Shown here in pieces: positions 10,417-40,974 of a stretch of 48,302 bases of DNA; within the stretch, counting starts at the first letter, position 1; every line of letters begins with the position of its first letter. Below the pieces are notes generated by a model. It worked only from the letters and a program-made list of their open reading frames with translations. It did not search any database and was not told the origin of the DNA. The translations under genes and the position numbers were made by a program. The stretch is from a virus (taxonomy: Duplodnaviria; Heunggongvirae; Uroviricota; Caudoviricetes). Location: the IMG/VR virus record IMGVR_UViG_3300045988_153358. One strand, written 5' to 3'.

Positions 10417-10421
10417 ACCTC

Positions 10422-12278
10422 ATGGGCGAAACAGTATGGAGCACCGCTTTTTTCCGTGCGCTTCGCCCTAAATCACGGCTAACTGTTTCCGAATGGGCTG
10501 ATAAGTATCGTCATGTAGCGCCGGGAACGTCTCCAGAGCCAGGGCCGTGGCGTACAAGCCGAGTGCCATATTTGCGTGAACCAATGGATGTTATTGGTGA
10601 CGCTGATACAGAAACAGTAGTGATGCAATGTAGCTCGCAAATTGGTAAATCCGAATTACAGCTAAATGTTATGGGTTACTTTGCAGATCAGGAGCCATCT
10701 CCTCAGTTGATGATTTATCCAACGGTAGAGGCGGCTGAGGCTTTTTCAAAAGAGCGTATTGATCCGACGTTCAAATATTCCCCTGGTTTGAAACACAAGC
10801 TGCATGAAGGGAAAGAGGGGCGCGGTGCAGCCAAAAAGTCCAGCACGACTATACGTATGAAGCATTACGCTGGTGGATATATAGCACTTGTTGGTGCTAA
10901 TTCCCCAGCAGGTCTTGCATCCAGGCCAATTCGAATACTGTTAGCTGATGAGATTGATCGTTACGGTGTGACGCAGGAGGGCGACCCACTAAAACTAGGT
11001 ATTCAGCGTACTACCAACTTTCATAATCGTAAGAAAGTTTTTGTTTCTACTCCTGTTTTGGAGGAAACAAGCAAAATCCACAAGTGGTTTAAGCTCTCCG
11101 ATCAGCGTTACTACCATGTTCCTTGCCCATGTTGTGGCACCATGCAGGTGATGAAATGGTCGCAAGTCAGATGGGATAAGAGCGATTCAGGTGAGGCGTT
11201 ACCGGAAACGGCCAGATATGAGTGCTGTGAGTGCGGCGGGATTATGCGCGGATCTGGTAAACCAGACGTTGATTGGTTGGCGAAGGGGGTATGGATAGCT
11301 GAACATACTGGAGTTAAAGGTATTGTTGGTTTTCATATTAACAGTCTTTACTCCCCGTGGGTTGCATTGTCAGAGCTGGTTGAAGAATTTACGGAAGCAA
11401 CCAGAAACCGCGATAAAAATGGATTAATGGAGTTTATTAACCTTAAGCTGGGTGAGCCATGGAAAGAGGATGCTAAAGACGATATCGATCCTGAATACTT
11501 GTTGCAACGCAGAATAAGGTTTGAAGAGTTTTTACCAGATGATGTTTTATTGTTAAGTGCTGGTGTTGACGTACAGGACACGTATTTAGTTTGTGAATTG
11601 GTCGGTTGGGGAAAAGGTAAGGAGTCATGGGGGATAGAATATAAAATATTCCCAGGTGATCCCGCACAAGATGTTGTCTGGAAACAACTTGATGAATACT
11701 TACTCCGTAGCTGGTCATTCCGTGACGGTCGAAAATTACAGATTTCTTCCGTTTGTATTGACTCTGGTGGGCATTTTACGACAGAGGTATATCGCTTTAC
11801 TAAGCCGAGAGAATCAAGGCGAATATACTCTATCAGGGGGCGTGGTGGGGTAGGTTTACCATTTATAGGAAAGCCAAGTAATAATAACCGTGTGGGTGCT
11901 ATGTTGTTTAATTTGGGGGTTGATGATGGTAAAGGGACCATCATGGCAAGAATTAAACTACATGATCCTGGTCCTGGTTATATGCATTTCCCATTAGATT
12001 CTGACAGAGGATATGATACCGAATACTTTAAAGGATTATTATCAGAGAAAAAAATATTTGAATATAAAAATGGGCAGACAAAAGAAAAGTGGGTGAAAGT
12101 CTACGAGCGTAACGAGCCTCTTGATTGCCGTAACTATGCAACTGCCGCGATGGAAATTCTGAACCCTAATTTTAACTGGCTTGCCGAACAGGAAATGCGA
12201 GGTAATGTGTATGTGCAGAACTCGTCAGGTATACGTAGAAGACGCCGTAGAGTTATAAGTAAAGGCGTAACCATATAG
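10422..12278 (+). CDS. terL: terminase large subunit, lambda GpA-like
   Basis: 618 aa; GpA-family N-terminal pattern (TVSEWADKY, PGPW, PYLREPMD); gene order. Confidence 0.85.
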   Translation: MGETVWSTAFFRALRPKSRLTVSEWADKYRHVAPGTSPEPGPWRTSRVPYLREPMDVIGDADTETVVMQCSSQIGKSELQLNVMGYFADQEPSPQLMIYPTVEAAEAFSKERIDPTFKYSPGLKHKLHEGKEGRGAAKKSSTTIRMKHYAGGYIALVGANSPAGLASRPIRILLADEIDRYGVTQEGDPLKLGIQRTTNFHNRKKVFVSTPVLEETSKIHKWFKLSDQRYYHVPCPCCGTMQVMKWSQVRWDKSDSGEALPETARYECCECGGIMRGSGKPDVDWLAKGVWIAEHTGVKGIVGFHINSLYSPWVALSELVEEFTEATRNRDKNGLMEFINLKLGEPWKEDAKDDIDPEYLLQRRIRFEEFLPDDVLLLSAGVDVQDTYLVCELVGWGKGKESWGIEYKIFPGDPAQDVVWKQLDEYLLRSWSFRDGRKLQISSVCIDSGGHFTTEVYRFTKPRESRRIYSIRGRGGVGLPFIGKPSNNNRVGAMLFNLGVDDGKGTIMARIKLHDPGPGYMHFPLDSDRGYDTEYFKGLLSEKKIFEYKNGQTKEKWVKVYERNEPLDCRNYATAAMEILNPNFNWLAEQEMRGNVYVQNSSGIRRRRRRVISKGVTI

Positions 12279-12289
12279 AGGAAATATAA

Positions 12290-12529
12290 ATGAACAATGA
12301 AGCATTTTCTCTGACTGAAGCCAGAGAGATGTTATCTGTCTGGCGGGAAGCATATCGCGCTATTGCTATTGGCGGTCAGTCATATAAATTTGGTACGCGG
12401 CAGTTAACTCGTGCGGATTTATCAGAAGTCAGAAAAGAGATGGATTACTGGCGTAATGAAGTAGAAAGATTATCAGCAGGTGTACGCCGAGGCCCACGAA
12501 TTAAACGAGTGGTGATAAGAGATTTATGA
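12290..12529 (+). CDS. gpW-like head-tail joining protein
   Basis: 79 aa between terminase and portal, as in lambda. Confidence 0.6.
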   Translation: MNNEAFSLTEAREMLSVWREAYRAIAIGGQSYKFGTRQLTRADLSEVRKEMDYWRNEVERLSAGVRRGPRIKRVVIRDL

Positions 12530-14100
12530 ATATTCTTGATCGAGTTATTGCGCCGTTTTCACCTCAGAGGGCATTAAATCGAGCTTTGGCAAGAAAACGG
12601 TTAGAAGCACTTGAAGGTATTAATAACCTTGGATATTCACGTCATGGTGCAAGCACTCATAAAAAATCATTAAGGGGTTGGTTTAGTAAAGCTGGTTCTC
12701 CTGATGATGATATTGTTAAAAATATAGATAAATTGCGTGAGCGTTCTCGTGATCTCTTCATGGGAAACCCGCTATCTGTTGGCGCAATAAAAACTATCAG
12801 GACAAACGTTGTTGGTTCCGGTTTAAAACTAAATGCGAACATTGATGCCGATTTCTTGGGGATGACGCAGGAAGAAGCGCGAGCATGGGAAAAGCATGTT
12901 GAGCGTGAGTTTAGATTATGGGCTGATTCTCCAAATTGTGATGCATCAAGAATGTGTACTTTTGGACAATTGCAATCATTGGTCCAAATATCTGCGTTAA
13001 CATCTGGCGATATATTTGCTGCGCTACCAGTTATTAAGCGTAAGGGTGTTATATATGATTTGTGCGTCTATTTAATTGAAGGTGATCGTGTTTGCAATCC
13101 AGAGGATCGTTTTATACCAAATCTTTACGGTGGCGTAGAGGTTGGTGAATTTAGCGAGCCTGTGGCGTACTGGGTTGCAAAACATCACCCAGCCGGGACT
13201 TCTGGTTTTGTAACCCGCAAGTGGGAACGTATTCCCGCATATGGGAGTAAAACAGGAAGAAGAAATATTCTGCATGTCATGCAGGATTTTGAAAGGCCTG
13301 GGCAACGCCGTGGCGTTCCTGTCCTTGCTCCTGTAATTGAAGCATTGAAGCAGTTAGGACGATACACCGATGCTGAATTGGTTGCTGCGGTTGTGTCAGG
13401 GATGTTTACTGTCTTTATTAAAACAGACGCTCCTGATGGGCCAGTCGGTGAATCGGGTATCCCTCAGTACGAGCAGATCGATAACCATGATAATAACACC
13501 CAAGAAATGGGGAATGGCTCCATAGTAAGTTTGGGTGAAGGTGAGTCGATAGATACAGCAAATCCCGGGCGACCAAATACGGCATTTGATGGTTTTGTTG
13601 TCGCCATATGCCGTCAAATTGGGGCTGCTTTAGAACTCCCTTACGAACTCTTGGTAAAGCATTTTACAGCAAGTTATAGCGCAAGCAGGGCCGCATTACT
13701 TGAAGCCTGGAAAATGTTCCGTATGCGACGTGACTGGATGGTTCAGTCATTTTGCCAACCGATCTATGAGGAATGGTTGGCCGAAGCCGTTGCTAAAGGT
13801 CGTGTTATTGCCCCTGGTTTTTTTTATGGGCCTGAATATCGCGCTGCATGGAGTGGCGCTCAATGGTATGGCCCATCACAAGGCCAATTAGATCCCCTTA
13901 AAGAAGTCAAAGCTGCAAAACTGCGTGTTGAGGAAACATTCTCTACCCGTGAAAAAGAAGCGGCTGAAATGTCAGGTCTTAACTGGGAAGAAACCGCACA
14001 AATCTGTGGCAGAGAAGAGAATGCTCGCCGTGAGTTGGGGCTTATTACACCTCCTGTTTCTGAGGTAAATGAACAAAATATGGAGACTGATGATGCCTAA
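12526..14100 (+). CDS. portal protein (lambda B-like)
   Basis: 524 aa; position after terminase and gpW-like gene. Confidence 0.8.
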   Translation: MNILDRVIAPFSPQRALNRALARKRLEALEGINNLGYSRHGASTHKKSLRGWFSKAGSPDDDIVKNIDKLRERSRDLFMGNPLSVGAIKTIRTNVVGSGLKLNANIDADFLGMTQEEARAWEKHVEREFRLWADSPNCDASRMCTFGQLQSLVQISALTSGDIFAALPVIKRKGVIYDLCVYLIEGDRVCNPEDRFIPNLYGGVEVGEFSEPVAYWVAKHHPAGTSGFVTRKWERIPAYGSKTGRRNILHVMQDFERPGQRRGVPVLAPVIEALKQLGRYTDAELVAAVVSGMFTVFIKTDAPDGPVGESGIPQYEQIDNHDNNTQEMGNGSIVSLGEGESIDTANPGRPNTAFDGFVVAICRQIGAALELPYELLVKHFTASYSASRAALLEAWKMFRMRRDWMVQSFCQPIYEEWLAEAVAKGRVIAPGFFYGPEYRAAWSGAQWYGPSQGQLDPLKEVKAAKLRVEETFSTREKEAAEMSGLNWEETAQICGREENARRELGLITPPVSEVNEQNMETDDA

Positions 14101-15157
14101 TTGGTGGGAAATAAAAAATAGCACGGGTGAAGATGACTCTCCGGCTGAACTTTTAATTTACGGGTATATTGGTGAATTTGATGAGGTTTCTTCTTCTGAC
14201 ATAGTTAATAAATTAAAGGATATTTCATCAAATACTATCAACGTAAAAATTAATAGTTATGGTGGTTCTGTTTTTACTGCTCAAGCTATTCTTTCATCAT
14301 TAAAGCGTCATAAGGCGAATATTACGGTTTATATCGACGGGATTGCTGCATCGGCTGCAACTATTATTGCAATGGCGGGTGATAAAATTATTATCCCATC
14401 TAATGCTATGATGATGATCCATAATCCGTGGATATTTGCTGCTGGCGATGCGGATGAATTGCGTGATATTGCTGAGATGATGGATAAGATACGCAATAGT
14501 ATTTTATCTGCATATAAGGAGAAAACAGGGCTTTCTGAGGATAAATTAATTGAACTAATGGATCAGGAAACATGGCTAAATGCAGAAGAGGCTGTAGAGC
14601 TTGGATTTGCTGACGAAGTTGAAAAACCAATACGCTTATCCGCTTCTATAAAGGAAGGGATGCTTTCGCTTAATGGAATAACTTTTGAAGCATCAAGGTT
14701 TTCAAAATTACCTGATTCACTCGCAAAGTTGCCGCAAAATAAAAATGAGTTATCTACTGAATCAAATGAACAAAATGAGGACGATATTGTGACTCTTGAT
14801 GAATTAAAAAATAAACATCCAGAATTATACAATCAGGTTTTTAATGCTGGTAAAGACGAGGGCGTTAAATCAGAACGCGAGCGCATTGAAACAATCGAGA
14901 ATAGCGTGATTCCTGGTCATGACGACCTGGTTAAGAATGCAAAATTCAAAACAGGAGTTTCTGCGGCTGAACTTGCTTTGGAAATTATGAATGCAGAGCG
15001 AGCGCGTAACAAAAACTTTCTTAATCAACGGCAAGAAGACGCAAGTGAGGTGAATGATTCAGTTGATGTTAATCAACCAGAAAACAACGGCAACAAACAG
15101 GCTGAAGCAGTAAAAAATGTTATTGGGTCAGTATTTAAAAACCGCGATAAAAATTAA
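14069..15157 (+). CDS. head maturation protease (ClpP/S49-like) with C-terminal scaffold-like region; start uncertain (14069, 14090 or 14093)
   Basis: protease-like core (NSYGGSVF, IDGIAASAATIIAMAGD); coiled acidic C-terminus. Confidence 0.7.
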   Translation: MNKIWRLMMPNWWEIKNSTGEDDSPAELLIYGYIGEFDEVSSSDIVNKLKDISSNTINVKINSYGGSVFTAQAILSSLKRHKANITVYIDGIAASAATIIAMAGDKIIIPSNAMMMIHNPWIFAAGDADELRDIAEMMDKIRNSILSAYKEKTGLSEDKLIELMDQETWLNAEEAVELGFADEVEKPIRLSASIKEGMLSLNGITFEASRFSKLPDSLAKLPQNKNELSTESNEQNEDDIVTLDELKNKHPELYNQVFNAGKDEGVKSERERIETIENSVIPGHDDLVKNAKFKTGVSAAELALEIMNAERARNKNFLNQRQEDASEVNDSVDVNQPENNGNKQAEAVKNVIGSVFKNRDKN

Positions 15158-15166
15158 GGTGAGTTT

Positions 15167-15550
15167 ATGCGAGAGTCTTTTTCATTTGAACCAGATAATC
15201 TGATTATTTCTGGTGGTATGCCAGCAATTCCAGCAAGTATTAAACTTGCCAGCGGTAAAGTAAAACGGGGTGAGTTACTTGCTTTTGTCAGTATTGATCA
15301 GACAACAAATGTTGTCACTGTGGCGCCAATAAATCTCTCTGGTGAAGGGGAGGCAAAAGAACCGTATTGTATCGCTCAACACAATATTGATGCGACTGAT
15401 TCAGCGCAAGTCGGAACAGCATGGCTGACCGGAATGTTCAATGCACATGCGGTTATCCTTCCTGAATCAGCAAAAGTTGCCGATGTATATCTGGCTTGCC
15501 GGAAGGTTGGAATATTCCTTAATACCGCACAACAAAATCCATCTGCATAA
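15167..15550 (+). CDS. putative head decoration protein (gpD-like position)
   Basis: 127 aa between protease and major capsid gene. Confidence 0.45.
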   Translation: MRESFSFEPDNLIISGGMPAIPASIKLASGKVKRGELLAFVSIDQTTNVVTVAPINLSGEGEAKEPYCIAQHNIDATDSAQVGTAWLTGMFNAHAVILPESAKVADVYLACRKVGIFLNTAQQNPSA

Positions 15551-15570
15551 TATAAAGAGGTCGTATTTTT

Positions 15571-16614
15571 ATGCCGAATATTGATATTTTTGAACGACGT
15601 ACGATGCTTGAGCCTGTTATTCAGAATTTCAAGGCTCGTCGTTTTCTTCTTCGTACCTTTTTTCCTGGTGTTCAGACCTTTAATACAAAGAAAGTTGATC
15701 TGGATTTTGTTCGCGGTGGCCGTACTATGGCTCCGTTTGTTGGTAAAGGTTTTGGCTCAAAAACCGTTGAGCGACGCGGCTTTGTAACGAGAACTCTGGA
15801 GCCACCACTTGTTGCACCTGATTTGGTAACAACAGCCGAGCTGCTTTTAAACAGGCTTCCGGGTGAGAATATTTACAACGCAAAATCGCCAGCAGAACGA
15901 GCCGCCGAGCAATTAGGTAAAGATTTGCTTGAGCTTGATGAAATGGTTAACCGCCGTGAAGAATGGATGTGTGCACAAGTCTTGTTTACGGGGCAGGTTG
16001 ATATTGTTGGTGAAGGAGTGGATGACACAGTTTATTTTTGGCCTGAAGAGGAAGGAGATAAACCATATCTTGAACTGACAGGTGATGATTTATGGAGTGC
16101 AGCAAAATCAGATCCGTTAGTCAATGTTCGCAACTGGAAACGTCGGGTATCACTAACTTCAGGTTTTACACCTCGTGTTGCCGTAATGGGCGCAAAAGTT
16201 GTTGATGCCTTCGTTAAAAATGAAGCAGTAACTAAATATCTTGATAATCGCCGAAAAGAGCTTGGGTATATTGAGCCTAAAGAGTTAGAAGAAGGCGTAA
16301 CTCATTATGGCAATCTTGAAGGTGTCGATTTTTATGGTTACGACGAACTTATTCGCAATGATAAAACAGGAAAACCTGAACCATTAGTACCGGAAGATAA
16401 GATCCTCTTTGGCTCTCCTGGTCGAGGAACGATGCTGTATGGTGCTGTAGAGCTTGTAGATGACGCCGAAAAGACTCTAACGATTGTTGAGTCACCACGA
16501 GTTCCAGACACTTGGGTAACTCGTAAGCCGGCTGGCCGTTATGTTGCCATGAAGTCATCTCCACTGCCTAATCCTGGTGTGGCTGATGCCTATCTGGTGG
16601 CTAAGGTGGTTTAA
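15571..16614 (+). CDS. major capsid protein (lambda E-like)
   Basis: 347 aa; size and position; C-terminal pattern resembles E family. Confidence 0.8.
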   Translation: MPNIDIFERRTMLEPVIQNFKARRFLLRTFFPGVQTFNTKKVDLDFVRGGRTMAPFVGKGFGSKTVERRGFVTRTLEPPLVAPDLVTTAELLLNRLPGENIYNAKSPAERAAEQLGKDLLELDEMVNRREEWMCAQVLFTGQVDIVGEGVDDTVYFWPEEEGDKPYLELTGDDLWSAAKSDPLVNVRNWKRRVSLTSGFTPRVAVMGAKVVDAFVKNEAVTKYLDNRRKELGYIEPKELEEGVTHYGNLEGVDFYGYDELIRNDKTGKPEPLVPEDKILFGSPGRGTMLYGAVELVDDAEKTLTIVESPRVPDTWVTRKPAGRYVAMKSSPLPNPGVADAYLVAKVV

Positions 16615-17007
16615 ATGGCCAGACTGATTAAAAACATTGATACGATAAGCCACGGCTCGCTAAAAGCGGGCCGTTTGCTTAATGGGCTAATGGATAACTC
16701 CAGAATTGCCGAACTGATTGCGTCAGGACATGCTATTGCCACCGAAGAGGATGGTGATTTGGCATCGGCTGGGGGCTATGATGCTGCTAAGTTAGCTTTT
16801 GAGCATGGATACGCATCTGCTGTTAATGATGCTGTGGACGCGGGGTTGATTACGCGAACGGAGGCGGGTAGCTGTGTATTCGAGGTTGAGTTTGAGGATG
16901 ATGGCGGCAATGAGGAAATGGTTGCTGATGATTCATCTGAATCTGTAGCTACTTCTGATACCAGTAATGCGAAAAAATCAACGCAAAAAAAAGGTAATAA
17001 GAAGTAA
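16615..17007 (+). CDS. hypothetical head-associated protein (130 aa, acidic C-terminus)
   Basis: ORF track; position in morphogenesis module. Confidence 0.5.
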   Translation: MARLIKNIDTISHGSLKAGRLLNGLMDNSRIAELIASGHAIATEEDGDLASAGGYDAAKLAFEHGYASAVNDAVDAGLITRTEAGSCVFEVEFEDDGGNEEMVADDSSESVATSDTSNAKKSTQKKGNKK

Positions 17008-17351
17008 TGAACTCCTTCAAAGAGGTTATAGCGCAAGATATTTCTGCAATATTCCTCAATGAAAAAGAGTTTGCCGATACATATAACATAGACGGCAAGG
17101 ATATCCTTGCCGTTATTGATACAGACCTTATTCATGAGCGGAATAAACGCTCATATGCTGAGTTTGCAGAGGGAATAAATCAGGGGCAAATAATATTATT
17201 TGTTTCAAGAAAAGATTTTCCTGTTCTCCCTGTCAAAGACCAGTCAATGAAAATCAACGGTAAAAATTATATTGTTGATGAAGTATCAGATAATGTTGGT
17301 GTATTGGAAATAACTCTCACTGTTAATACTAACAGAGGAATGCCGATTTGA
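17007..17351 (+). CDS. hypothetical head-tail connector or completion protein (114 aa)
   Basis: ORF track; position. Confidence 0.5.
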   Translation: MNSFKEVIAQDISAIFLNEKEFADTYNIDGKDILAVIDTDLIHERNKRSYAEFAEGINQGQIILFVSRKDFPVLPVKDQSMKINGKNYIVDEVSDNVGVLEITLTVNTNRGMPI

Positions 17352-17833
17352 TTAATCTTTTGATAGATGCAATAAAAAATCGGTTGGAACATGAGGTTTT
17401 CCATGATTTATTAGTGCAGGGGCCTCCTTATGATGAAACAGACAGCGATATTAAATTGTTTGTTCCAACAATATTTAAAGGGTACTTGCCTCCTAAATCA
17501 CAACCATCTCCAGATAAACCGCCAGAATTTCCTCATGTGATTATCAGGCCCACGGAAGGAGGAATGCAGCCTGAAACGGATGAAGTTAAGGTTAAGTTTC
17601 TTCTAGGTGGTTTTTGTGAGGACCATACTGGATATGAATGGGTAATGGCTCTTCTTGAAAGGATGATGTTTCATTTTCAGGAGAAGCCTTTACTTGAAGA
17701 GAAATTTCTCTTTCAGGGTGATATCAGATGGCGAATGTTTGATGATCAACCATATCCATATTGGATAACGGAAGCAACTGGAACGTGGCTAGTATTAAAG
17801 CCTCAGAATATTCAGTCTCAGGAGTTTATCTAA
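17348..17833 (+). CDS. hypothetical tail completion protein (161 aa)
   Basis: ORF track; position. Confidence 0.5.
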   Translation: MINLLIDAIKNRLEHEVFHDLLVQGPPYDETDSDIKLFVPTIFKGYLPPKSQPSPDKPPEFPHVIIRPTEGGMQPETDEVKVKFLLGGFCEDHTGYEWVMALLERMMFHFQEKPLLEEKFLFQGDIRWRMFDDQPYPYWITEATGTWLVLKPQNIQSQEFI

Positions 17834-18124
17834 ATGGCTAATAAGAAAAGTAGTAAAGAAGATATAGAAAAGAAGGAAGATGTTGCTCAAACATTTGTAT
17901 ATATAGGGCCAACAATCCCTCAACTCTCAATTTTGAAGCATAAACTATTTAAGAATGGCTTATCTCCAGAGTGTGAAAAATTAATATCACATATTCCTGG
18001 TGCAAAGTGTTTGTTTGTGGCAACCAGTGATTTTTCAGATGCAGAAAAAAGACTTTCTGATAAAACCAGTGTCGAGTATGTAATGTACTCTAGAGTTTCT
18101 TCTTCTATCATGGAGATTAAATAA
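17834..18124 (+). CDS. hypothetical protein (96 aa)
   Basis: ORF track; position before sheath. Confidence 0.45.
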   Translation: MANKKSSKEDIEKKEDVAQTFVYIGPTIPQLSILKHKLFKNGLSPECEKLISHIPGAKCLFVATSDFSDAEKRLSDKTSVEYVMYSRVSSSIMEIK

Positions 18125-19587
18125 TGGGATATCGCCACGGTATTTATATATCTGAGCTGGCTACATCTATAACTCCTCCAGTACAAGTTAGTGCTGGGTT
18201 GATTGTCGCATTTGGTACAACTCCTGTTAATCAGTTAGAAGATCCAGCCTCAGCGGTAAATAAACCTATCATTGCTTATACATACGCAGAGGCCGTATCT
18301 AAAATAGGATATAGCACAAACTTCGAGAAATATACTTTAAGCGAAGTAATTAAAGTCGCATTTGGAATATATGGTGTTGCGCCAGTTGTATTTATCAATG
18401 TGCTTGATCCAGCAAAGCATAAGAAAGACGTAACTGATGAGGTAGTAAAACTTTCTGGCGGGAAAGGTACGCTCTCTAACGATGGTGTCTTATATAAATC
18501 TGTTGTTGTGAAAAAAGCAGATGGTGATTCTCCAGGGTTAACGGTTGATACAGATTATGTACTGGCGCTGGATGATAATGGCTATACGGTCATTACCGCT
18601 ATTAGCGGAGGAAAAATTACTGAAAAAGACGCCACTCTTAAGGTTAGTTATACGCATCTTGATCCCGGGGCTGTAACTAAAAACGATATTATTGGTGGTG
18701 TGGATTCCAACACTAAAGCGAATACGGGGCTTGAGTTACTGTCGGATGTTTATCCCCGCTTCAAACTAGTTCCAGGACAAGTGATTGCGCCTGGATTTAG
18801 TTCTGATAGTGAAGTTGGCCAGCTAATGGCGGCTAAAGCTGCGCTGATTAGTGAATTGTTCAAAGCAGAAGCTATCACCGATGCGCCGACTGATAAATCT
18901 ACTATCAGTGATTATTCTGCTGTTCCTGAATGGAAGCAGAACAATAATCATATGGCAGCTAACCAGACAGTGTGCTGGCCGATGGTGAAACTTGGTGACA
19001 ATATTTACCATCACTCAACCCATTTAGCGGCAGCAACATGCTTGCTGGATAGTCAGTATGGTGATATTCCATCACGTTCTCCGTCAAATATAAAACTACA
19101 GATGGACGGTGCTGTACGTAAAGATGGCAGTGAGGTATGGCTTAACATTAGCCAGGCAAACTACTTAAATGGACAGGGGATTGTAACAAGCCTTAATTTT
19201 GATGGTTGGAAATCATGGGGAAACCGTAATGCTATTTATCCAACATCTACAGACCCCAAAGACGCATTTCGTGTTTGCCGACGTATGTTTAACTGGGTGG
19301 GTAATACGTTAATTCTTTCGCATTGGTCAAAAATAGACAATCCTGCAAACCGTCGATTAATTGAATCGATTGTTACTAGTGCGAATATTTGGCTTAACGG
19401 CCTCACTGGTAATCAGGATATTGCAGGTGGTGTTGTTACCTTTGATCAGTCTGAAAACACGATTACGTCATTGATGGACGGGATTGTTAAATTCCATGTG
19501 AAAATGACACCATTCTCACCTGCCAGAGATATAGAGTTCGTCATGGAATATAATCCTGATTATCTGCTGAACTTGTTTTCTGAATAA
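18124..19587 (+). CDS. contractile tail sheath protein
   Basis: 487 aa; N-terminal HGIYISE pattern like P2 FI/Mu L sheaths; followed by tube gene. Confidence 0.8.
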   Translation: MGYRHGIYISELATSITPPVQVSAGLIVAFGTTPVNQLEDPASAVNKPIIAYTYAEAVSKIGYSTNFEKYTLSEVIKVAFGIYGVAPVVFINVLDPAKHKKDVTDEVVKLSGGKGTLSNDGVLYKSVVVKKADGDSPGLTVDTDYVLALDDNGYTVITAISGGKITEKDATLKVSYTHLDPGAVTKNDIIGGVDSNTKANTGLELLSDVYPRFKLVPGQVIAPGFSSDSEVGQLMAAKAALISELFKAEAITDAPTDKSTISDYSAVPEWKQNNNHMAANQTVCWPMVKLGDNIYHHSTHLAAATCLLDSQYGDIPSRSPSNIKLQMDGAVRKDGSEVWLNISQANYLNGQGIVTSLNFDGWKSWGNRNAIYPTSTDPKDAFRVCRRMFNWVGNTLILSHWSKIDNPANRRLIESIVTSANIWLNGLTGNQDIAGGVVTFDQSENTITSLMDGIVKFHVKMTPFSPARDIEFVMEYNPDYLLNLFSE

Positions 19588-19603
19588 ATAATAGGAGGTT
19601 GCT

Positions 19604-20125
19604 TTGAGCAATCAAATTCCTGAGAGACTTATTAACTTTACAGTATACGGTGAAGGAAACCGTATTATCGGTGTTGCTGACGCAAAGCTGCCATCAATTG
19701 AGATGATGACAGAAACTGTTAGTGGTGCAGGTATTGCTGGAGAGCTTGAGAGCGGAACGCTGGGGCATTTCAAACCAATGACCGTCTCTCTTAAATGGCG
19801 AACCCTAACCTCTGCTGGTACAAAATTATTTTTATCCTCATCGCATCAGGTAGATTTTCGTGGTAGCCAGCAGGTTTATGATGCCGGAACAGGAAAATAT
19901 AAAACGGTTCCCATTCGGGCTTCAATGAAGCTAAACCCTAAAAAACTGGATTTAGGTTCGCTACAGGTGGCAAAGGCTACTGATTCAGAGAATGAATTTG
20001 AAGTTCTCTATATCAAATTATTTATTGAGGGAAAAGAAGTCCTGGAAATTGATAAATTGAACTTTATTTGTATCTTCGATGGTGAAGATATATTAAAAAG
20101 CGTTCGTGATGATTTAGGTTTATAA
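19604..20125 (+). CDS. tail tube protein (P2 FII-like), TTG start
   Basis: 173 aa; C-terminal VLEIDKLNFI pattern like FII; AGGAGG upstream. Confidence 0.8.
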   Translation: MSNQIPERLINFTVYGEGNRIIGVADAKLPSIEMMTETVSGAGIAGELESGTLGHFKPMTVSLKWRTLTSAGTKLFLSSSHQVDFRGSQQVYDAGTGKYKTVPIRASMKLNPKKLDLGSLQVAKATDSENEFEVLYIKLFIEGKEVLEIDKLNFICIFDGEDILKSVRDDLGL

Positions 20126-20134
20126 GGTGACAAA

Positions 20135-20416
20135 ATGGAAACCGTTAAATTAAGTAAAGAGTATCGTTTTGAAGACTTCGAGCCGGTGACTGAACTCAAC
20201 CTTGATTTAGACAACCTAAAAGGCAGCGATATTTTAGAAGTATCGGACTTACTGCAATCTCAAGGGCATGTTACAGTTCAAACATCACTTGATCATAAAG
20301 TCCACGTTGCTCTGGCTGCTCGCTGTATTGGCCGTCCGATAGAGTATCTGAATGGATTGCCAGCGAAAGACTTTGTTAAAGTTTGCCAAAAGGTACAGAA
20401 TTTTTTGCTCTCGTAG
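20135..20416 (+). CDS. tail assembly chaperone (P2 gpE-like), zero-frame product
   Basis: 93 aa between tube and tape measure; slippery heptamer T_TTT_TTG at 20401-20407. Confidence 0.7.
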   Translation: METVKLSKEYRFEDFEPVTELNLDLDNLKGSDILEVSDLLQSQGHVTVQTSLDHKVHVALAARCIGRPIEYLNGLPAKDFVKVCQKVQNFLLS

Positions 20417-20565
20417 GTTTTGATGAGCAAAAACCTATTGATAAGCAAATAATGAGGGCCGCGAGTTCTCTATCTCAATCATCTCAATCAACACCTATAT
20501 CCTACTGGCTTTCTCTTCGGTTGAGGCGAATTGTCGCATGGATTGATGTGTTTAATGAGGATTAA
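20135..20565 (+). CDS. tail assembly chaperone extended product made by programmed -1 frameshift at 20401-20407
   Basis: canonical X_XXY_YYZ slippery site; -1 frame stays open to 20565, just before the tape measure gene. Confidence 0.6.
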
Positions 20566-20570
20566 TACTA

Positions 20571-23363: not shown

Positions 23364-23574
23364 TTATAGAACGGTTCAAGGGGACTCATGGGATAGCATC
23401 GCGTTAAAGTTGTATGGTAATGAGTACCTGTCTTATCTTCTTATTGATGCTAATACTGAGCACCGCTTTACGGTGCTTTTTTCTGCGGGAATTATTCTTA
23501 AAGTTCCTGATGCTCCGGTTATGCCAATATCAGTAAACAATTTGCCTCCGTGGAGACGCAATAGTGTTACGTAA
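23356..23574 (+). CDS. tail protein X-like (LysM-like), TTG start
   Basis: 72 aa with VQGDSWDSIALKLYG LysM-like pattern as in P2 gpX; GGAG Shine-Dalgarno. Confidence 0.7.
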   Translation: MDDYRTVQGDSWDSIALKLYGNEYLSYLLIDANTEHRFTVLFSAGIILKVPDAPVMPISVNNLPPWRRNSVT

Positions 23575-24565
23575 AACGCTTTTTGATGTTATATATCAGA
23601 ATGTAAATATTACCGCTCATATGTCACCTGATGTTTTGTCAATGTCTTATACAGATAATGAAGATGGTCAGGTCGATGATATTTCTATTATATTAAAAAA
23701 TGATGATGGGAAATGGTCTGGAGACTGGACACCTAAAAAGTGTGATTTTATTGATTTGAGCTTTAAGCCTATAAATCAAATCGTCCTTGAGTGCGGGAAA
23801 TTCCAGGTGGATGGCATAACTTGCTCTGGACCACCTTCTGTTGTTGAGGTGACTGCTGTTTCTGTTCCTGTTTCATCAGGCATTAGACGTGATTTAAAAA
23901 GTAATGCATGGGAAAAAACAACTCTTAAAGATATAGCGACTTCTATAGCTAAATTAGCTAACCTTGAACTGTTGTTTCTTATTGATGGTGATAGTAATCC
24001 ATATTATGCGCGTGAAGATCAAATGGAGGAAAGCGATTTAAAATTTCTCCATCGACTTTGCCAGGATGAAGGGGTGTCGTTAAAGGTCACTGATAGCCAA
24101 TTAATAATATTTGCTCAAGAGATGTTTGAGCAAAAAGATCCTATCGCTACGCTTACGTTAGGTATTGATGAGATAATCAGATATAGCTTTAGCACACAAT
24201 CTACAGATTTGTATAAAAGTTGCACGTGCAAATATCGCGTACCTAAAAAAAGAAAATCGCTTTCGTATACTTGGGTAGATCCATCCGTAGAAGAAGGGGC
24301 GAATCTTAAGATAAGAAAACTGGTAGCTAATTTAGATGAAGCAAAACGTAAGGCAAAGGCTGCTTTGCGGCTTAAAAATAGATATCAAAATACCGGATCT
24401 TTAGTTTTGGTTGGAGACACCAGATTGGTAGCTGGTGTAACTATAAATCTGGACGGATTTGGTTCATTTTCTGGAAAATATCTTATATCGAAAGCTGTGC
24501 ATTCAATTGGGGCTAGTGGTTATACCACCTCGATTGATGTCCGAAGAGTAATTAATGGGTATTAA
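23564..24565 (+). CDS. tail protein D-like (P2 gpD / Mu gpP family)
   Basis: 333 aa; position and pattern. Confidence 0.65.
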   Translation: MLRKTLFDVIYQNVNITAHMSPDVLSMSYTDNEDGQVDDISIILKNDDGKWSGDWTPKKCDFIDLSFKPINQIVLECGKFQVDGITCSGPPSVVEVTAVSVPVSSGIRRDLKSNAWEKTTLKDIATSIAKLANLELLFLIDGDSNPYYAREDQMEESDLKFLHRLCQDEGVSLKVTDSQLIIFAQEMFEQKDPIATLTLGIDEIIRYSFSTQSTDLYKSCTCKYRVPKKRKSLSYTWVDPSVEEGANLKIRKLVANLDEAKRKAKAALRLKNRYQNTGSLVLVGDTRLVAGVTINLDGFGSFSGKYLISKAVHSIGASGYTTSIDVRRVINGY

Positions 24566-24567
24566 TT

Positions 24568-25188
24568 ATGAATGATTTAGAAACATTATTACGTCAGACT
24601 ATAAGAGTTGGCGTTGTTTCTGATATTGATGATGGTGATGTTACAGCAAGAGTTACTTTCGATGATCAGGATAACGTCACTTCGGCAAAGTTATCAGTTA
24701 TTGTGAAAAATACAGATAAGAATGCTGATTACTGGATGCCAGATATTGGTGAGCAAGTTTTGTGTATCTTTCATCCCGCAGGGCCGCAACAAGGTTTTAT
24801 TCTTGGTAGTTTTTATGATGAAACACAGAAGCCGCCATCTAATACTGTTAATAAACGCGTAATTAGATTTAATAACGGAACTCGTATTGAGATAGACAGA
24901 GAATCTAATTTACTCCTTGTTGATGCTGTCGGAGATGTAACCGTTAAGGCTACAGGAACCGTAACTATTGATGCTCCAGAAACCATCATTACCGGAAATG
25001 CTACAGTTGAAGGATTACTAACCTTCAAAGGTGGAATGAAAGGATCTTCTGCTGGAGGTGTTGCAGCTACAATTTCTGGGAATGTTAAGGTTGTTGGTGG
25101 TGATATAGATGTTGATGGGATTAAATCTAAAGGCCACCATCACACAGCTCAGGGGGAATACGCTCCGACAACGGAGGCTCAGGCATGA
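24568..25188 (+). CDS. baseplate assembly/spike protein V-like
   Basis: 206 aa; IGEQVLCIF and C-terminal GHHHT pattern like P2 gpV. Confidence 0.75.
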   Translation: MNDLETLLRQTIRVGVVSDIDDGDVTARVTFDDQDNVTSAKLSVIVKNTDKNADYWMPDIGEQVLCIFHPAGPQQGFILGSFYDETQKPPSNTVNKRVIRFNNGTRIEIDRESNLLLVDAVGDVTVKATGTVTIDAPETIITGNATVEGLLTFKGGMKGSSAGGVAATISGNVKVVGGDIDVDGIKSKGHHHTAQGEYAPTTEAQA

Positions 25189-25652
25189 TTGTGGGTATGC
25201 TTGGTACAATGCCTTTTGTTGCCTCATCAATAGTAGTGAATACGTTCAACAATTTTAAAAGGACGTCAAAGCGTCGTGTAGCGCGCCATGATGTTATTGG
25301 GCTTAAACCTGTTCTGGAGGATATAGGTCCAGATCTGGATGAAGTTAGTTTTAATATGCGGTTGGATACAACACTTGGCATTGTTCCATTGGCTGCGCTT
25401 TCATTACTTAGGACGATGCAATCAATTCAGGAAGTAAATCCTGTTGTAATTGGTATTCAGTATTTTGGTAATTTTATAATTACAGATATAGAGGAATCAT
25501 GGACTTATTTCGGTCCAACTGGGAATCCGCGAGTGATTATCGTCGGCATTAAATTACAGGAAGTCGGACAGACCTCTCTGAAAGAAGCATTAGTTGATAT
25601 TGCTGGCAATATAGAGTCAAAAACTAGAAGTGCGTTAGGTAAATTATTATGA
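25185..25652 (+). CDS. tail or baseplate protein (tentatively P2 gpU-like)
   Basis: 155 aa; weak recalled resemblance only. Confidence 0.4.
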   Translation: MIVGMLGTMPFVASSIVVNTFNNFKRTSKRRVARHDVIGLKPVLEDIGPDLDEVSFNMRLDTTLGIVPLAALSLLRTMQSIQEVNPVVIGIQYFGNFIITDIEESWTYFGPTGNPRVIIVGIKLQEVGQTSLKEALVDIAGNIESKTRSALGKLL

Positions 25653-25969
25653 ATAATACGTTTACCATATTATCAACTTCTTACTCGATTGATTGGTCGC
25701 CCAAAACAGTTGTAGAAGAAGTTTTGCAAAATGTCTCTACTATTATTAACACTCAGATTGGCACTGTACCATATGCCAGAAAATTAGGAGTTAATTCAAG
25801 TCCTGTTGATAGCCCCAGTCCAATTTTTATTGCTACAGCAACACGAGAAATAATTCAAAAAATTAGTGAGTTTGAGCCTAGAGCGATTATCCATTCTGTT
25901 ACTTTTGAAAGAACGGACGTTTCTGATGGTTTTATTAGGCCAAAACTTGTGATAGGAGTTAGAGAATGA
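25649..25969 (+). CDS. baseplate protein W-like (gp25 family)
   Basis: 106 aa; position before J-like gene. Confidence 0.7.
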   Translation: MNNTFTILSTSYSIDWSPKTVVEEVLQNVSTIINTQIGTVPYARKLGVNSSPVDSPSPIFIATATREIIQKISEFEPRAIIHSVTFERTDVSDGFIRPKLVIGVRE

Positions 25970-27090
25970 CGTTGCCGCGTGGTGGTTTGCCAGATATTAC
26001 TTTCGCAGATTCTAACCCGACTGATATAACAACTCGTTCAATCAGGGCTTTTGAGAGTATAACAGGTGAAACATTAGCACCTGCTGATCCACGTAGATTA
26101 TTCATCTTATCATTGTGTGAGATTATTATACAGCAAAGAAAAGCTATCGATTTTTCTGCAAAACAAAACCTTCTTACATATGGTGAAGGTGAATATCTCG
26201 ACCATATAGGCTATCTGACGGATACGCCTAGGCTGGAAGCTCAATCTGCCTTGACTACATTTGAGTTTAATCTGTCAACAAAATTATCGGGGATATATAC
26301 AATACCTGCTGGCACTCAAGTTTCAACTGGAAATGGTGTTATTTTCCAAACAGATATTTTGTTGGAAATACCTGCTGGGAAAACAGTTGGTACAGTCTCA
26401 GGATATGCTGTTATACCTGGTTTATCTGGGAATGGCTTTTTACCAGGGCAAATAAATGAGTTGGTGACTCCGTTGCCGTATGTTTCCAGCGTAAGGAATG
26501 TAACAACATCTAATTCTGGTGCTGATACGGAGTCAGATGATAATTATGCTGAAAGAATAAAACTGTCGCCGGAAAAACTGTCTACAGCAGGGCCGGAGGA
26601 TTCTTATAAATATTGGACAAGAACAGCCAATCAGAATATAAAAGATGTGAATGTATATACACCATCGCCCGGAATTGTAGAAATCCGTTCTTTGTTAGAG
26701 AACGGAGATATACCTTCTAATGAACTATTAGAGCAGATAAATAGCGTTCTCTCTGCAACTAATATTCGACCATTCACAGATAAAGTTCTTGTTAAGAAAC
26801 CAGAGAGCATTGAATACGATATAATAATTAAATACTGGATTAACTCATCGGACAAAAACAGAACAACTTTAATTCAAAGTGAGGTTGAGAAAGCTATTGA
26901 TGAGTATAAACAATGGCAACGTTCGGTTATGGGAAGAGATATAAATCCAGATGAAATTATTCAACGTTTAAAAAATGCTGGGGCTAAAAGATTAGAAATA
27001 TCAAGTCCTGTTTTTACTGTGATTGGAGAGACACAGGTCGCCAGAGAGAGAAATATAAATTGCCAGTATGCGGGGTTAGAGGATGGCTGA
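25966..27090 (+). CDS. baseplate protein J-like
   Basis: 374 aa; position and pattern. Confidence 0.75.
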   Translation: MTLPRGGLPDITFADSNPTDITTRSIRAFESITGETLAPADPRRLFILSLCEIIIQQRKAIDFSAKQNLLTYGEGEYLDHIGYLTDTPRLEAQSALTTFEFNLSTKLSGIYTIPAGTQVSTGNGVIFQTDILLEIPAGKTVGTVSGYAVIPGLSGNGFLPGQINELVTPLPYVSSVRNVTTSNSGADTESDDNYAERIKLSPEKLSTAGPEDSYKYWTRTANQNIKDVNVYTPSPGIVEIRSLLENGDIPSNELLEQINSVLSATNIRPFTDKVLVKKPESIEYDIIIKYWINSSDKNRTTLIQSEVEKAIDEYKQWQRSVMGRDINPDEIIQRLKNAGAKRLEISSPVFTVIGETQVARERNINCQYAGLEDG

Positions 27091-27664
27091 TATCTTTAAT
27101 GTTAGCTTGTTGGATGTTTTACCTCCTAACTTAGCTAGCGATCCCAACGTGATAGCTATGTCGAAAGCTATTGATGATGAACTACAAGCAATTAACAATT
27201 TAATATATAAGACAGAAATATATAGCGTTGTTGATAACCTGGACTCAGTTGTTCTCGATCATTTAGCTTGGCAATGGAATGCTGATACATGGAGGGATAG
27301 TTGGCCTGTATTGTTAAAGCGTTCTGTTTTTAAATCAATAATACGAACAAAGCGAATAAAGGGTACAAGGGCAGCGGTTGAAGATGTAGTAAATAGCTTG
27401 GGTGGAGAGGTAAACATAACAGAATGGTTTGAAACATCACCACCTGGCGAACCATATACAGCCTCAATTGTTGCTTCGATTAACTCTTTTGATGGTGCTG
27501 TTCCTTCGAAAGAGATGTTGGAGGATACGTTAAGAAGTATCAAGAGTGCAAAGTCGGCAAGAACACTATTTACATTTTCGCAAGCAACCAATGTTTCAGG
27601 TGGTGTTGGTATTGTCGGTGCTTTCCAGCCTGTGTCTTATGTACGATTAATTGGTGAGTGCTAA
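27083..27664 (+). CDS. tail protein I-like
   Basis: 193 aa; position between J and tail fibre. Confidence 0.7.
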   Translation: MADIFNVSLLDVLPPNLASDPNVIAMSKAIDDELQAINNLIYKTEIYSVVDNLDSVVLDHLAWQWNADTWRDSWPVLLKRSVFKSIIRTKRIKGTRAAVEDVVNSLGGEVNITEWFETSPPGEPYTASIVASINSFDGAVPSKEMLEDTLRSIKSAKSARTLFTFSQATNVSGGVGIVGAFQPVSYVRLIGEC

Positions 27665-27694
27665 TTTGCGATTTGTTAATCCAAGGAATTAAGC

Positions 27695-30541
27695 GTGAGT
27701 AAATTATTATTTACGATGACTGACGCCGGGCGTAAGGCGCTGGTTAATGCCAACAAGACTGGAACAAATAAAGTTGAGATCGTTTCTGTTGGTTTAGGTA
27801 GTAGATATTATGCCACATCAACCACACAAACAAAAATAACAGATGAAATAAAGCGACTTACCACAATAGGAGGCAAAGTCGTTTCTCCTGATACCATTCA
27901 TGTAACTGCGAAGGATGATAGTAAAGATGAGTATGTTGTCCATACAATAGGTTTGTATACAAATAAAGGAACATTGTTTGCTGTATACTCGCAAGAACAA
28001 GTAATAATAAATAAAGCATCTTCTACAATTGCTTTAATATCAAGTGATATAGCAATTAAAAATCTTGATACTAAAAACATTACATTTGGTGATGTTGAGT
28101 TTATTAACCCTCCCGCAACCGAAACTGTTGTTGGAGTAGCAAGATTTGCTAATGAACAAGAAATTGATGCAGGTACAGATGATTCCCTGGCTGTTTCAGC
28201 AAAGCGGCTTAAGCAAGCTATTGTAAAACATGAGCAATCACGTAATCATCCTGATGCAACTTTAACATCAAAAGGCATTGTTCAACTCAGTAATGCCACC
28301 AATAGCACGTCTGAAAAGCTCGCAGCGACGCCTAAGGCTGTTAAGGCTGCATATGACCTGGCTGACGGAAAATATACCGCCCAGAATGCCACCACGGCAC
28401 AAAAAGGGATAGTTCAGCTCAGTAGTGCCACTAACAGTACGTCTGAAACGCAGGCGGCAACGCCAAAAGCGGTCAAGGCAGCAAATGACAACGCAAATTC
28501 ACGTCTGGCGAAAAATCAGAACGGTGCAGATATCCAGGATAAATCAGCTTTTCTGGACAATGTTGGCGTTACCAGCCTGACGTTTATGAAAAACAATGGC
28601 GAAATGCCGCTTGATGCTGATCTGAATACGTTTGGTCCTGTTAAGGCTTATTCAGGTATCTGGTCTAAAGCAACATCCACCAACGCAACACTGGAGAAAA
28701 ATTTCCCGGAAGATAATGCTGTCGGTGTGCTTGAGGTTTTTGCTGCCGGCAATTTTGCAGGTACGCAACGCTTTACCACGAGAGACGGCAATGTATACAT
28801 GCGTAAACTCGCCAATAAGTGGAATGGCACTGATGGTCCGTGGGGCGTATGGCGTCACACTCAATCTGCTACCCGCCCTTTGAGTACGACTATAGACCTG
28901 AATACGCTTGGAGCCGCCGAGCATCTTGGTTTATGGCGTAACAGTAGCTCAGCTATAGCTTCATATGAACGCAATTATCCAGAGGAAGGCGGCTTTGCTC
29001 AGGGGATGCTTGAGATCCTCGAAGGCGGAAATTATGGAAGAACGCAACGTTATACCACTCGCCGTGGAAATATGTATGTCCGCTGTCTTGCGGCAAGCTG
29101 GGATGCATCAAATCCGCAGTGGGAACCGTGGTTAAGAGTCGGTCATCAGTCAGAGAGTCGTTATTACGAAGGTGATTTGAATGATGTAACCTCACCAGGT
29201 ATTTACAGCGTTACAGGTAAAGCGACCAACGGTCCAGTACTGGACGGAAACGGCGTGACTGTACTCGGCATTCTGGAAGTGTTGAGGCGGTTTGATGGTG
29301 TTAATGTATGGCAGCGTTATACAACTGCCGGAACAGGTACAACCCTTAAAGGCCGCACCTTTGAGCGCGTCTTTACCGGCAGCTCATGGAGCGAATGGCG
29401 GGAAGTCTACACCTCGTATTCACTTCCCCTGAATCTAGGTATCGGCGGTGCTGTGGCAAAGCTCACCAGCCTGGACTGGCAGACCTACGATTTTGTGCCG
29501 GGCAGTCTGATAACCGTTCGGCTTGATAACATGACCAATATTCCCGACGGTATGGACTGGGGCGTCATTGATGGCAACCTGATAAACATCTCAGTCGGTC
29601 CGAGTGATGATTCTGGTTCGGGACGCTCAATGCATGTATGGCGCAGCACTGTAAGTAAAGCCAACTACCGCTTTTTTATGGTTCGCATTTCAGGAAATCC
29701 GGGAAGCCGCACGATCACGACAAGACGTGTGCCAATTATCGACGAAGCTCAGACATGGATGGCGAAACAGACATTCAGCGGTGGTCTTTCAGGCGAACTA
29801 TCCGGCAATGCTGCTACAGCAACAAAGCTGAAAACGGCAAGGACAATTAACGGCGTAAAATTTGACGGCTCGGCAAATATTGAAGCGTTTCCGCCAGGTG
29901 TTCCGCTGCCGTGGCCATCAGATACGCCACCTGCAGGTTATGCAATCATGCAGGGGCAGACGTTTGATAAGGCAGCATATCCGAAACTGGCTATTGCCTA
30001 TCCTTCTGGTGTTATTCCAGATATGCGCGGCTGGACAATCAAGGGCAAACCCGCCAGTGGTCGGGCCGTATTGTCTCAGGAACAGGATGGCATTAAATCG
30101 CACACCCACAGTGCCAGCGCATCCAGTACGGATTTGGGTACGAAAACCACATCGTCGTTTGATTACGGTACTAAATCAACGAATAACACAGGTGCACATA
30201 CCCACAATGTATCTGGTACTGCAAATAGTGCTGGCGCACATACTCATACCGTTCCATTAAGGAGACCAAACAGTGGCGGTATGAATTTCGACTGGCTGGA
30301 TGGTTCATCAAGTGGCACGGTGGTGGGGAATGGAACTGTGCCTTCTTCTGGCGCACATACCCACTCAGTATCAGGTACCGCTACAAGTGCTGGGGCACAT
30401 GCACACACTGTTGGTATTGGCGCTCATACGCACTCTGTTAAGATTGGTTCACATGGACACACCATCACCGTTAACGCTGCTGGTAACGCGGAAAACACCG
30501 TTAAAAACATCGCATTTAATTATATTGTGAGGCTTGCATAA
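27695..30541 (+). CDS. tail fibre protein (start GTG 27695 or ATG 27716)
   Basis: 948 aa; tandem [23 protein letters not shown] repeats; C-terminal GAHTH repeats. Confidence 0.85.
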
Positions 30542-31158
30542 TGGCATTCAGAATGAGTGAACAATCACGTACCGTAAAAATTTATAACCTGCTGGCCGGA
30601 ACTAATGAGTTTATTGGTGAAGGTGACGCATATATTCCACCTCATACAGGGCTGCCAGCTAATTCTACAGATATCGCCCCACCGGAAATTCCTGCTGGCT
30701 TTGTGGCAGTTTTTAACAGTGAAAATGAATCGTGGAATATTGTTGAAGACCATCGTGGTAAAACGGTCTATGACGTGGCGTCGGGGGACGCATTGTTTAT
30801 TTCTGAACTCGGACCGCTACCAGAGAATGTCACCTGGTTGTCGCCAGCAGGGGAGTATCAGAAGTGGGACGGCGTATCCTGGGTGAATGATGAGGAAGCA
30901 GAAAAACTGTTTCGGATACGGGAAGCGGAAGAGAAAAAGGCAAGGTTGATCCAGGAAGCAACAGATAACATCGCAATTCTGCAGGATGCAGTTAATCTTG
31001 AAATAGCAACAAACGAGGAAAATTCACAACTGGATTCCTGGAGAAAATACAGAGTATTAGTGAGTAGAATTGACACCAGTACAGCTCCGGATATCGTATG
31101 GCCAGAGCTGATGAATCAGGGTTATGTTCGGGAGGACGAGCAGATAACTTCAGACTGA
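30541..31158 (+). CDS. tail fibre assembly protein
   Basis: 205 aa directly after tail fibre gene; typical N-terminal pattern. Confidence 0.8.
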
Positions 31159-32155: not shown

Positions 32156-32268
32156 AAACAAAAAGCCCGCAGATAAATCTGCGGGCTTCTTGCGACATCC
32201 ACGGAAAACCAACAATTAACCATGGGCGCCTCGACAACTCCCATTATACGTTGGTTTTCCGTGGACGC
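32156..32268 (-). ncRNA. candidate CopA-like antisense RNA region for repA control
   Basis: 16-bp perfect inverted repeat 32198-32213 / 32250-32265 with about 36-nt loop; 10-bp hairpin 32163-32188 followed on the minus strand by a U-run. Confidence 0.45.
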
Positions 32269-32280
32269 AAGAGCGAACAT

Positions 32281-34581: not shown

Positions 34582-34591
34582 AGGATTGAGC

Positions 34592-39761: not shown

Positions 39762-39766
39762 CGATT

Positions 39767-40956: not shown

Positions 40957-40974
40957 TTGTCGAGACTCCATGTG

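Follow-up and report, generated by a model that had tools for sequence, protein, structure and literature searches.

The DNA analysed here is a single stretch of 48,302 nucleotides (nt), referred to below as the 48.3-kb window, held in IMG/VR as a Caudoviricetes record (IMGVR_UViG_3300045988_153358), and it consists of a tightly packed phage genome plus plasmid-maintenance genes. A preliminary description of this DNA flagged the region 10422-31158, in which it saw lambda-like head and packaging genes joined to a P2/Mu-like contractile tail, and it took this combination, together with an IncFII-type replicon, as the mark of an unusual recombinant lineage. This study compared the genes of the flagged region and of the rest of the window with those of known phages and plasmids, and the element is interpreted below as a phage-plasmid.

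The packaging and head genes all lie on the plus strand, and the block begins before 10422. A ParB-like nuclease gene (9275-9865; ParB_N 3.8e-8, phrog_620 4.6e-75), which is found directly upstream of the terminase genes in the phages X29 and XM1 as well (59-62% amino acid (aa) identity, same position), is followed by the terminase small subunit TerS (9856-10416; phrog_57 7.4e-42; 42% identity to the X29 and XM1 TerS) and by the large subunit TerL, which is of the lambda GpA type (10422-12278; GpA_ATPase 7e-76, GpA_nuclease 1e-84) and shares 63-65% identity with its X29/XM1 counterparts and 28% with lambda A. The gpW position is occupied by a small head-tail adaptor of 79 aa (12290-12529; DUF6148 7e-16, phrog_118 7e-29). 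Downstream of it are encoded the portal of the lambda family (12526-14100; Phage_portal_2 7e-101; 66% identity to X29 and 27% to lambda B), a ClpP-family prohead protease of 362 aa (14069-15157; CLP_protease 1.2e-31 over residues 41-185) whose C-terminal part is probably a scaffold, a head decoration protein (15167-15550; phrog_49 8.4e-25; Pfam HDPD at 19.7 bits, under its cut-off) and the major capsid protein of the lambda E type (15571-16614; Phage_cap_E 1.5e-55; lambda gpE structure PDB 7vi9 at 6e-17; 47% identity to X29). Four small head-completion or neck genes (16615-18124; 130, 114, 161 and 96 aa; phrog_5541, phrog_2551, phrog_2581 and phrog_4089) come next, three of them conserved in X29 and XM1 and the phrog_2551 gene having a weak Hc1 match in addition. 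The head genes described earlier thus hold for TerL, portal, protease and E-type capsid, with two corrections: homology of the adaptor to lambda gpW was rejected (hhalign probability 0.2%), so that the adaptor is gpW-like by position only, and the protease is not of the lambda S49 gpC type.

The database records of the Yersinia isolates introduced below, of X29, of XM1 and of the Acinetobacter phage HFM1 start just upstream of this block, at a point equivalent to window position ~8862, and the HFM1 record carries annotated 11-nt cohesive ends. As a separate observation, three genes with a ParB_N domain are clustered on the plus strand (5986-6609, 6603-7982 and 9275-9865), the second being fused to a methyltransferase domain; X29/XM1 share the position of the third only.

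The tail genes continue on the same strand. The contractile sheath (18124-19587) is recognized by phrog_23 (4e-95), the R-pyocin sheath (5e-15) and P2 FI (hhalign probability 97.7%), and is 53% identical to the X29 sheath; the Pfam search returned no match for it, and homology to Mu L was rejected, again with no match. It is followed by the tail tube of the P2 FII family (19604-20125; Phage_tube 2.2e-43) and by a tail assembly chaperone pair of the E/E' type (20135-20565; Phage_TAC_7) with a -1 frameshift at T TTT TTG (20401-20407); this slippery heptamer is intact and identical to that at the annotated P2 E/E' frameshift site. The tape measure protein (20571-23363; PhageMin_Tail 1e-20), the gpX-like, gpD-like hub and gpV-like spike genes (23356-25188; Phage_tail_X, Phage_GPD, Phage_base_V, Phage_spike) and the gpU-, gpW/gp25-, gpJ- and gpI-like baseplate genes (25185-27664; Phage_P2_GpU 2e-22, GPW_gp25, Baseplate_J 6e-54, Tail_P2_I 1.8e-26) lead to an internally mosaic tail fibre (27695-30541), whose N-terminal part is lineage-specific and whose remainder has been exchanged from about 28489, and to the tail fibre assembly protein tfa (30541-31158; Caudo_TAP 1.1e-39; 81% aa identity to lambda tfa, orf-194). 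The contractile tail of P2/Mu pattern, from sheath to fibre assembly, was therefore correctly recognized in the preliminary description, although the likeness to Mu is one of order only: the tail proteins are P2-type by sequence, yet are laid out as a single contiguous Mu-like block.

Translated searches of TerL, capsid and sheath against 50,697 phage records returned identical nearest relatives for the three proteins, in identical rank order. The top group comprises the Vibrio phages XM1, R19R, PVP-XSN, R20L, Rostov 7, X29 and phi 2 (63-66% identity for TerL, 45-47% for the capsid and 50-53% for the sheath), and the next relatives are Acinetobacter HFM1, Exiguobacterium EalM-137, Paenibacillus Lily and phiERICV, and Clostridium Saumur, followed by Faecalibacterium and Fusobacterium phages. 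Outside the element's own group, 15 distinct phages have a capsid at least 33% identical, and 12 of these 15 are also among the 60 top sheath matches listed. [quoted passage not shown] The guanine-cytosine (GC) content has no step at the head-tail junction (16.6-18.1 kb). Judged by these comparisons, the head-tail cassette appears to be co-inherited and typical of a broad, old phage clade. Because the lambda-type head and the P2-type tail are inherited jointly with X29-like phages, the supposed head-tail recombinant is ordinary, and the inference of a recombinant lineage does not survive the shared ranking of the three markers, the collinear block and the even GC content. The preliminary description had itself named the clustering of TerL, capsid and sheath in one established genus as the result that would speak against it; in substance such a cluster was found in the X29-like group, though this group is without an ICTV genus.

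The same element is common in enterobacterial plasmid collections. Over its full length, the flagged region is 99.4% identical at the DNA level to E. coli plasmids of 47-49 kb in PLSDB, and many further plasmids, some of them from E. fergusonii and Klebsiella aerogenes, match 87% of its length at 98% identity. PLSDB has more than 40 matches at 98-99% identity, plasmids of 47-49 kb that are all typed as non-mobilizable; near-identical examples are pWP5-S18-ESBL-08_3 (NZ_AP022164.1), ECONIH1 (NZ_CP009861.1) and the plasmid of ATCC 25922 (NZ_CP009073.1). Carriers make up 72 of 5,426 complete E. coli genomes, in which 92 of the 93 places where the element occurs are on plasmids of about 47-49 kb, some copies being truncated or rearranged (31-39 kb). 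Two E. coli prophage records are 99.4% identical to the flagged region, and the Yersinia phages vB_YpM_39/41/44, whose recorded host is Y. pestis EV76, are 98% identical to the element over window positions 8862-28482. The lineage is accordingly a common one, not an unusual one as had been proposed, while its phage-plasmid nature, at which the preliminary description hinted, is borne out by the presence of virion genes alongside RepA and ParA and by the plasmid location in the E. coli genomes.

On Salmonella enterica plasmids of 44-49 kb a sister clade was found (IMG/VR loci L013-L031 and L095; plasmids NZ_LN890526.1, CP053324.1 and NZ_CP044178.1), in which the TerL, portal, capsid, sheath and tube proteins are 84-90% identical to those of the element and RepA is 85% identical. 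The similar divergence of the virion markers and of RepA indicates that replicon and virion diverged together, and the sister clade thereby shows the replicon-virion pairing to be older than the E. coli group.

Combined, these results favour reading the window, with a probability of roughly 0.86, as a complete copy, about 48 kb in length, of an established enterobacterial phage-plasmid, that is, a temperate myovirus kept as a low-copy plasmid and not by integration, in which the virion block (9275-27664) is one vertically inherited unit. The Vibrio phages X29, phi 2, Rostov 7 and XM1 have this 20-kb cassette for head and contractile tail too, and it recurs in more distant forms in Acinetobacter HFM1, Paenibacillus Lily and many uncultured phages. 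The set of virion, packaging and lysis genes is complete, with 25 intact virion ORFs (9275-31158) plus holin and endolysin; RepA and ParA are present, and no integrase is annotated in a 99%-identical plasmid, the window's own small ORFs having been scanned for one only in part; the location in hosts is extrachromosomal; and genomes 98% identical have been deposited as Yersinia phages with Y. pestis EV76 as the named host, which is indirect evidence for infectious virions. The element is in this sense already known, having been sequenced many times, and its head-tail combination is normal for a large, old phage clade; what novelty is left seems limited to a lineage under-described as a phage-plasmid type.

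Several points weigh against this reading. The present variant has a different fibre tip from that of the Yersinia isolates and is without their invertase segment, and its virion production is putative; the cos site and packaging mechanism are predicted. The literature search returned no paper that describes the element by name, and it may sit in an unnamed community of phage-plasmid surveys. The wider superfamily was surveyed through 80 IMG/VR loci that encode relatives of the capsid (38-100% identity), and its evidence goes both ways. In favour of the reading, 45 of the 80 have the full set of TerL, portal, capsid, sheath and tube, each at a coverage of at least 80%, and only four loci with enough downstream DNA are without a sheath. 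Against it, Mantel correlations of distance matrices from 30 dereplicated genomes reached 0.86-0.89 within the head module and 0.88 between sheath and tube, whereas head versus tail gave only 0.49-0.69, significant but below the within-module values. Additionally, loci L036, L054, L062 and L074 combine a similar head (41-62%) with a far more divergent sheath and tube (25-33%) and are candidates for real tail-cassette exchange. The weaker head-tail correlation and these discordant loci together indicate that exchange of tail cassettes happened deep in the history of the superfamily; the element's own line shows none.

These last observations also bear on the alternative that fares best, in which the clade arose once, by the joining of a lambda-type head to a P2-type tail cassette, with occasional tail swaps since, so that the element would be a deep-time mosaic like most tailed phages. 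To this we would give somewhat less than an even chance. Besides the lower head-tail correlation and the loci with a discordant sheath, it draws on the homology of the sheath to P2 FI and on the relatives of the E-type capsid at 27-29% identity, which include phages named as siphoviruses by their annotators (Xylella Salvo and Sano; BcepNazgul). Such a joining would not make the element unusual, and an ancient origin of this kind is compatible with a vertically inherited virion block rather than opposed to it.

It is improbable that the window holds a decayed, domesticated element, a plasmid with phage-derived genes that forms no infectious virions, whether as a cryptic prophage-plasmid or as something tailocin-like. 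PLSDB does type all of the relatives as plain non-mobilizable plasmids, some copies are truncated or rearranged (31-39 kb), locus L097 has a deletion, and the invertase/alternative-fibre segment is absent here. Against decay, each of the 25 virion ORFs is intact, their packing is tight and the frameshift signal is kept, lysis genes are present, the head genes have been retained, unlike in tailocins, and the deposited records of the 98%-identical genomes are of phages propagated on Y. pestis EV76. Least credible of all, and very unlikely indeed, is a recent or lineage-specific recombinant between a lambdoid siphovirus head/packaging module and a P2/Mu-like myovirus tail module: measured against lambda and P2 the pairing has the look of a hybrid, since the head genes fall in lambda-named and the tail genes in P2-named Pfam families, but lambda reaches 27-28% identity (TerL and portal only) and P2 25-31% in partial matches, as against 25-66% for X29-type phages in both modules, the markers have their nearest relatives in common, the head-tail junction is without a GC break, and the arrangement is conserved from Vibrio to Paenibacillus hosts and in dozens of IMG/VR contigs.

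The recombination that is visible in the phage-plasmid is at the fibre tip and at the junction of the virion block with the non-structural half, rather than between head and tail. The likeness to vB_YpM_41 breaks off at 28488, within the conserved fibre-repeat motif, where the GC content climbs from about 0.34 to 0.50, and the plasmid and phage subgroups diverge from about 28489 onward. The middle of the fibre (28414-29850) has 92-94% DNA identity to the H genes of P2-like phages, and its 3' end with tfa has about 83% DNA identity to lambda stf and tfa. In the Yersinia phages and in many of the plasmids the fibre tip is a different one and comes with a hin invertase and an inverted fibre/tfa set; the window has an acetyltransferase gene in place of hin and the inverted set. 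This hexapeptide-repeat acetyltransferase gene (31122-31685, minus strand) is convergent with tfa and overlaps its 3' end, is annotated as a serine acetyltransferase in the relatives, and is found only in this fibre subgroup; it is possibly a lysogenic-conversion or surface-modification gene.

The plasmid replication initiator RepA is encoded at 32152-33129 on the plus strand (IncFII_repA, PF02387, 5.6e-43). Compared with true IncFII RepA proteins it has 31-40% identity over 26-39% of its length, its close copies are confined to about 60 plasmid records, and a scan of the GTDB representative genomes for it found nothing. No CopA RNA was detected at the Rfam gathering threshold nor at E-values up to 1, and a search for iteron-like repeats around repA gave only short two-copy matches, likely due to chance. 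Given the distance of RepA from IncFII and the lack of a CopA match, 'IncFII-type' is a superfamily label and not an incompatibility group; the replicon named in the preliminary description is upheld at the level of the Pfam family and not as a true IncFII replicon, for which close RepA1 identity and CopA/CopT control would be expected. A strong minus-strand intrinsic terminator hairpin (32159-32192; fold z = -6.6 in the region 32120-32230) falls inside the opening 40 nt of the repA ORF as annotated, which suggests an antisense transcript across the repA 5' end that may control repA. Alternatively, repA may start further downstream, its Pfam match beginning at residue 52.

Other functions expected of a temperate phage kept as a plasmid are spread over the rest of the window. 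On the plus strand are the lysis genes (1029-2284), which encode holin(s) and a GH108 endolysin (Phage_holin_8 2.4e-37, Glyco_hydro_108 5e-27, PG_binding_3), and a toxin-antitoxin pair (34586-35238) consisting of a Gp49/HigB-like toxin and a helix-turn-helix (HTH) antitoxin (Gp49 5.7e-23, HTH_3), labelled RelE/ParE in a near-identical plasmid. On the minus strand are the partition ATPase ParA (40303-40971; CbiA and ParA family matches), a candidate CI-like HTH repressor (41574-42230; HTH_3 4.5e-11) and a P1-like immunity cassette (37495-39121). In the cassette, a C4 antisense RNA (38936-39024; Rfam, 77.8 bits) and an isrK RNA (39049-39121; Rfam, 67.7 bits) are found immediately upstream of a gene resembling ORF6N/Rha antirepressors (ORF6N 4e-20, Phage_pRha 4e-12), an arrangement that implies a putative lysogeny control of the c4/ant type in a phage unrelated to P1.

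Two further RNA genes were noted on the plus strand. A full-length match to the ryfA small RNA family (39493-39789) scores 141.8 bits against a gathering score of 80, and its region is the least conserved in comparison with related plasmids (90-94% identity). A tRNA-Met gene with anticodon CAT (2853-2928) is situated between the lysis genes and an MT-A70 methyltransferase gene.

The gene families suggest how such an element would work. TerS and the GpA-type TerL would cleave the DNA at a site near 8862, in the gap upstream of the ParB-like gene, and package it from there. A lambda-style head would be built by the portal, the ClpP-type protease, the E-type capsid and the decoration protein, with the small adaptor proteins connecting it to the sheath, tube and baseplate of a P2-style tail. 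Assembly of the tail would require the -1 frameshifted chaperone and the tape measure, and the exchangeable fibre tip and its chaperone would determine host range. During lysogeny, the plasmid would be maintained by RepA, ParA, the toxin-antitoxin pair, the CI-like repressor and the P1-like c4/antirepressor cassette. We infer these steps from the families involved; gene content, conservation and extrachromosomal location come from tool results.

The outcome is of modest use beyond this window. The names 'lambda-like' and 'P2-like' may create an illusory mosaicism, which a check for shared nearest neighbours of the markers dispels; in this lineage, exchange has in fact taken place at the fibre tip and where the virion block meets the lifestyle genes. 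Of the preliminary description as a whole, the lambda-type head genes, the P2-type contractile tail genes and the plasmid replicon stand, and the unusual recombinant lineage does not, the markers being concordant and the lineage common. E. coli ATCC 25922 ('Seattle 1946'), a widely used quality-control strain that serves as an antimicrobial-testing reference, carries the element as a 48,488-bp plasmid (NZ_CP009073.1 / NZ_CP037450.1; NZ_CP032086.1), and this strain thus has a probably functional phage-plasmid of a type absent from current typing schemes, which is relevant for phage and plasmid work with it. In one assembly, two copies stand in a single record of 94 kb, which probably reflects a dimer or an artefact of assembly.

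Among phage-plasmids, ten well-defined types are distinguished, namely AB_1, P1_1, P1_2, N15, SSU5_pHCM2, pMT1, pCAV, pSLy3, pKpn and cp32 (PMC7969092; bioRxiv 10.1101/2025.08.29.673033), and the type of the present element is outside these ten, which are the ones covered by current typing software (bioRxiv 10.1101/2025.08.29.673033). The pSLy3 / SSU5 group was considered as an identity and rejected, pSLy3 being an SSU5-related element of 114 kb (PMC5009973). A tentative proposal, which we would place a little short of even odds, is that the element represents an under-described phage-plasmid type: a lineage of X29-like myoviruses, present in Escherichia, Salmonella, Klebsiella and Yersinia, in which the integrase and the lambda O/DnaC-like replication genes known from the Vibrio relatives were swapped for a distant IncFII-family RepA, ParA, a toxin-antitoxin pair and the P1-like c4/antirepressor cassette. 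If this is true, it would offer a natural paired comparison of an integrative and a plasmid lifestyle on one virion chassis.

Lambda is a siphovirus with a non-contractile tail, and the head of P2 is of a different kind. With the lambda head module the element has in common the gene order and the Pfam families of TerL, portal and capsid E, as well as a decoration protein at the same position; identity is just 27-28% and extends to TerL and portal only, and lambda has an S49 gpC/Nu3 protease/scaffold where the element has one of the ClpP (S14) type. The GpA terminase, the lambda-family portal and the E-type capsid are thus present in lambda order, without a gpW adaptor or an S49 gpC/Nu3 protein. 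With the P2 tail, and with R-type pyocins, it has in common homologues of FI, FII, E/E' with the TTTTTTG frameshift, T, U, D, X, V, W, J and I, in partial matches of 25-31% identity at best; P2 has separate V-G and F-D operons, whereas the element has one contiguous block in Mu-like order, and tblastn found no match in the element to the P2 head and terminase genes Q, P, O, N, M and L. The Peduoviridae are therefore matched in their P2-type tail proteins and E/E' frameshift and not in capsid and terminase genes or operon layout. Mu contributes one match, gpJ (Mu gp47, 29% identity, 41% coverage), and resembles the element in gene order alone; Mu-type head and tail proteins and transposase-based replication are lacking. 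True IncFII replicons of the R1/R100 type are hosted mostly by conjugative plasmids, and the element is non-mobilizable.

Much closer are X29, phi 2, Rostov 7 and vB_VpaM_XM1, in which the virion block is collinear from the ParB-like/TerS genes to gpI, with TerL and capsid concordant in the nearest-relative searches; X29 also has the frameshifted chaperone. The XM1 paper reports myovirus morphology by electron microscopy and proposes that XM1, Rostov 7, X29 and phi 2 form a family 'Weiviridae' (PMC11432961). This family is not ICTV-ratified, and the element shares the virion half with the X29 group, but of its 41 non-structural ORFs just 3 are related to genes of X29 or XM1. These two phages have integrases and lambda O/DnaC-like replication genes where the element has RepA and ParA, and the fibres of the X29 group are unrelated to its fibre. 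The nearest known systems are the E. coli plasmids of 47-49 kb and the Yersinia phages, which at 98-99.4% DNA identity have gene order, RepA, ParA, the toxin-antitoxin pair and the immunity genes in common with the element.

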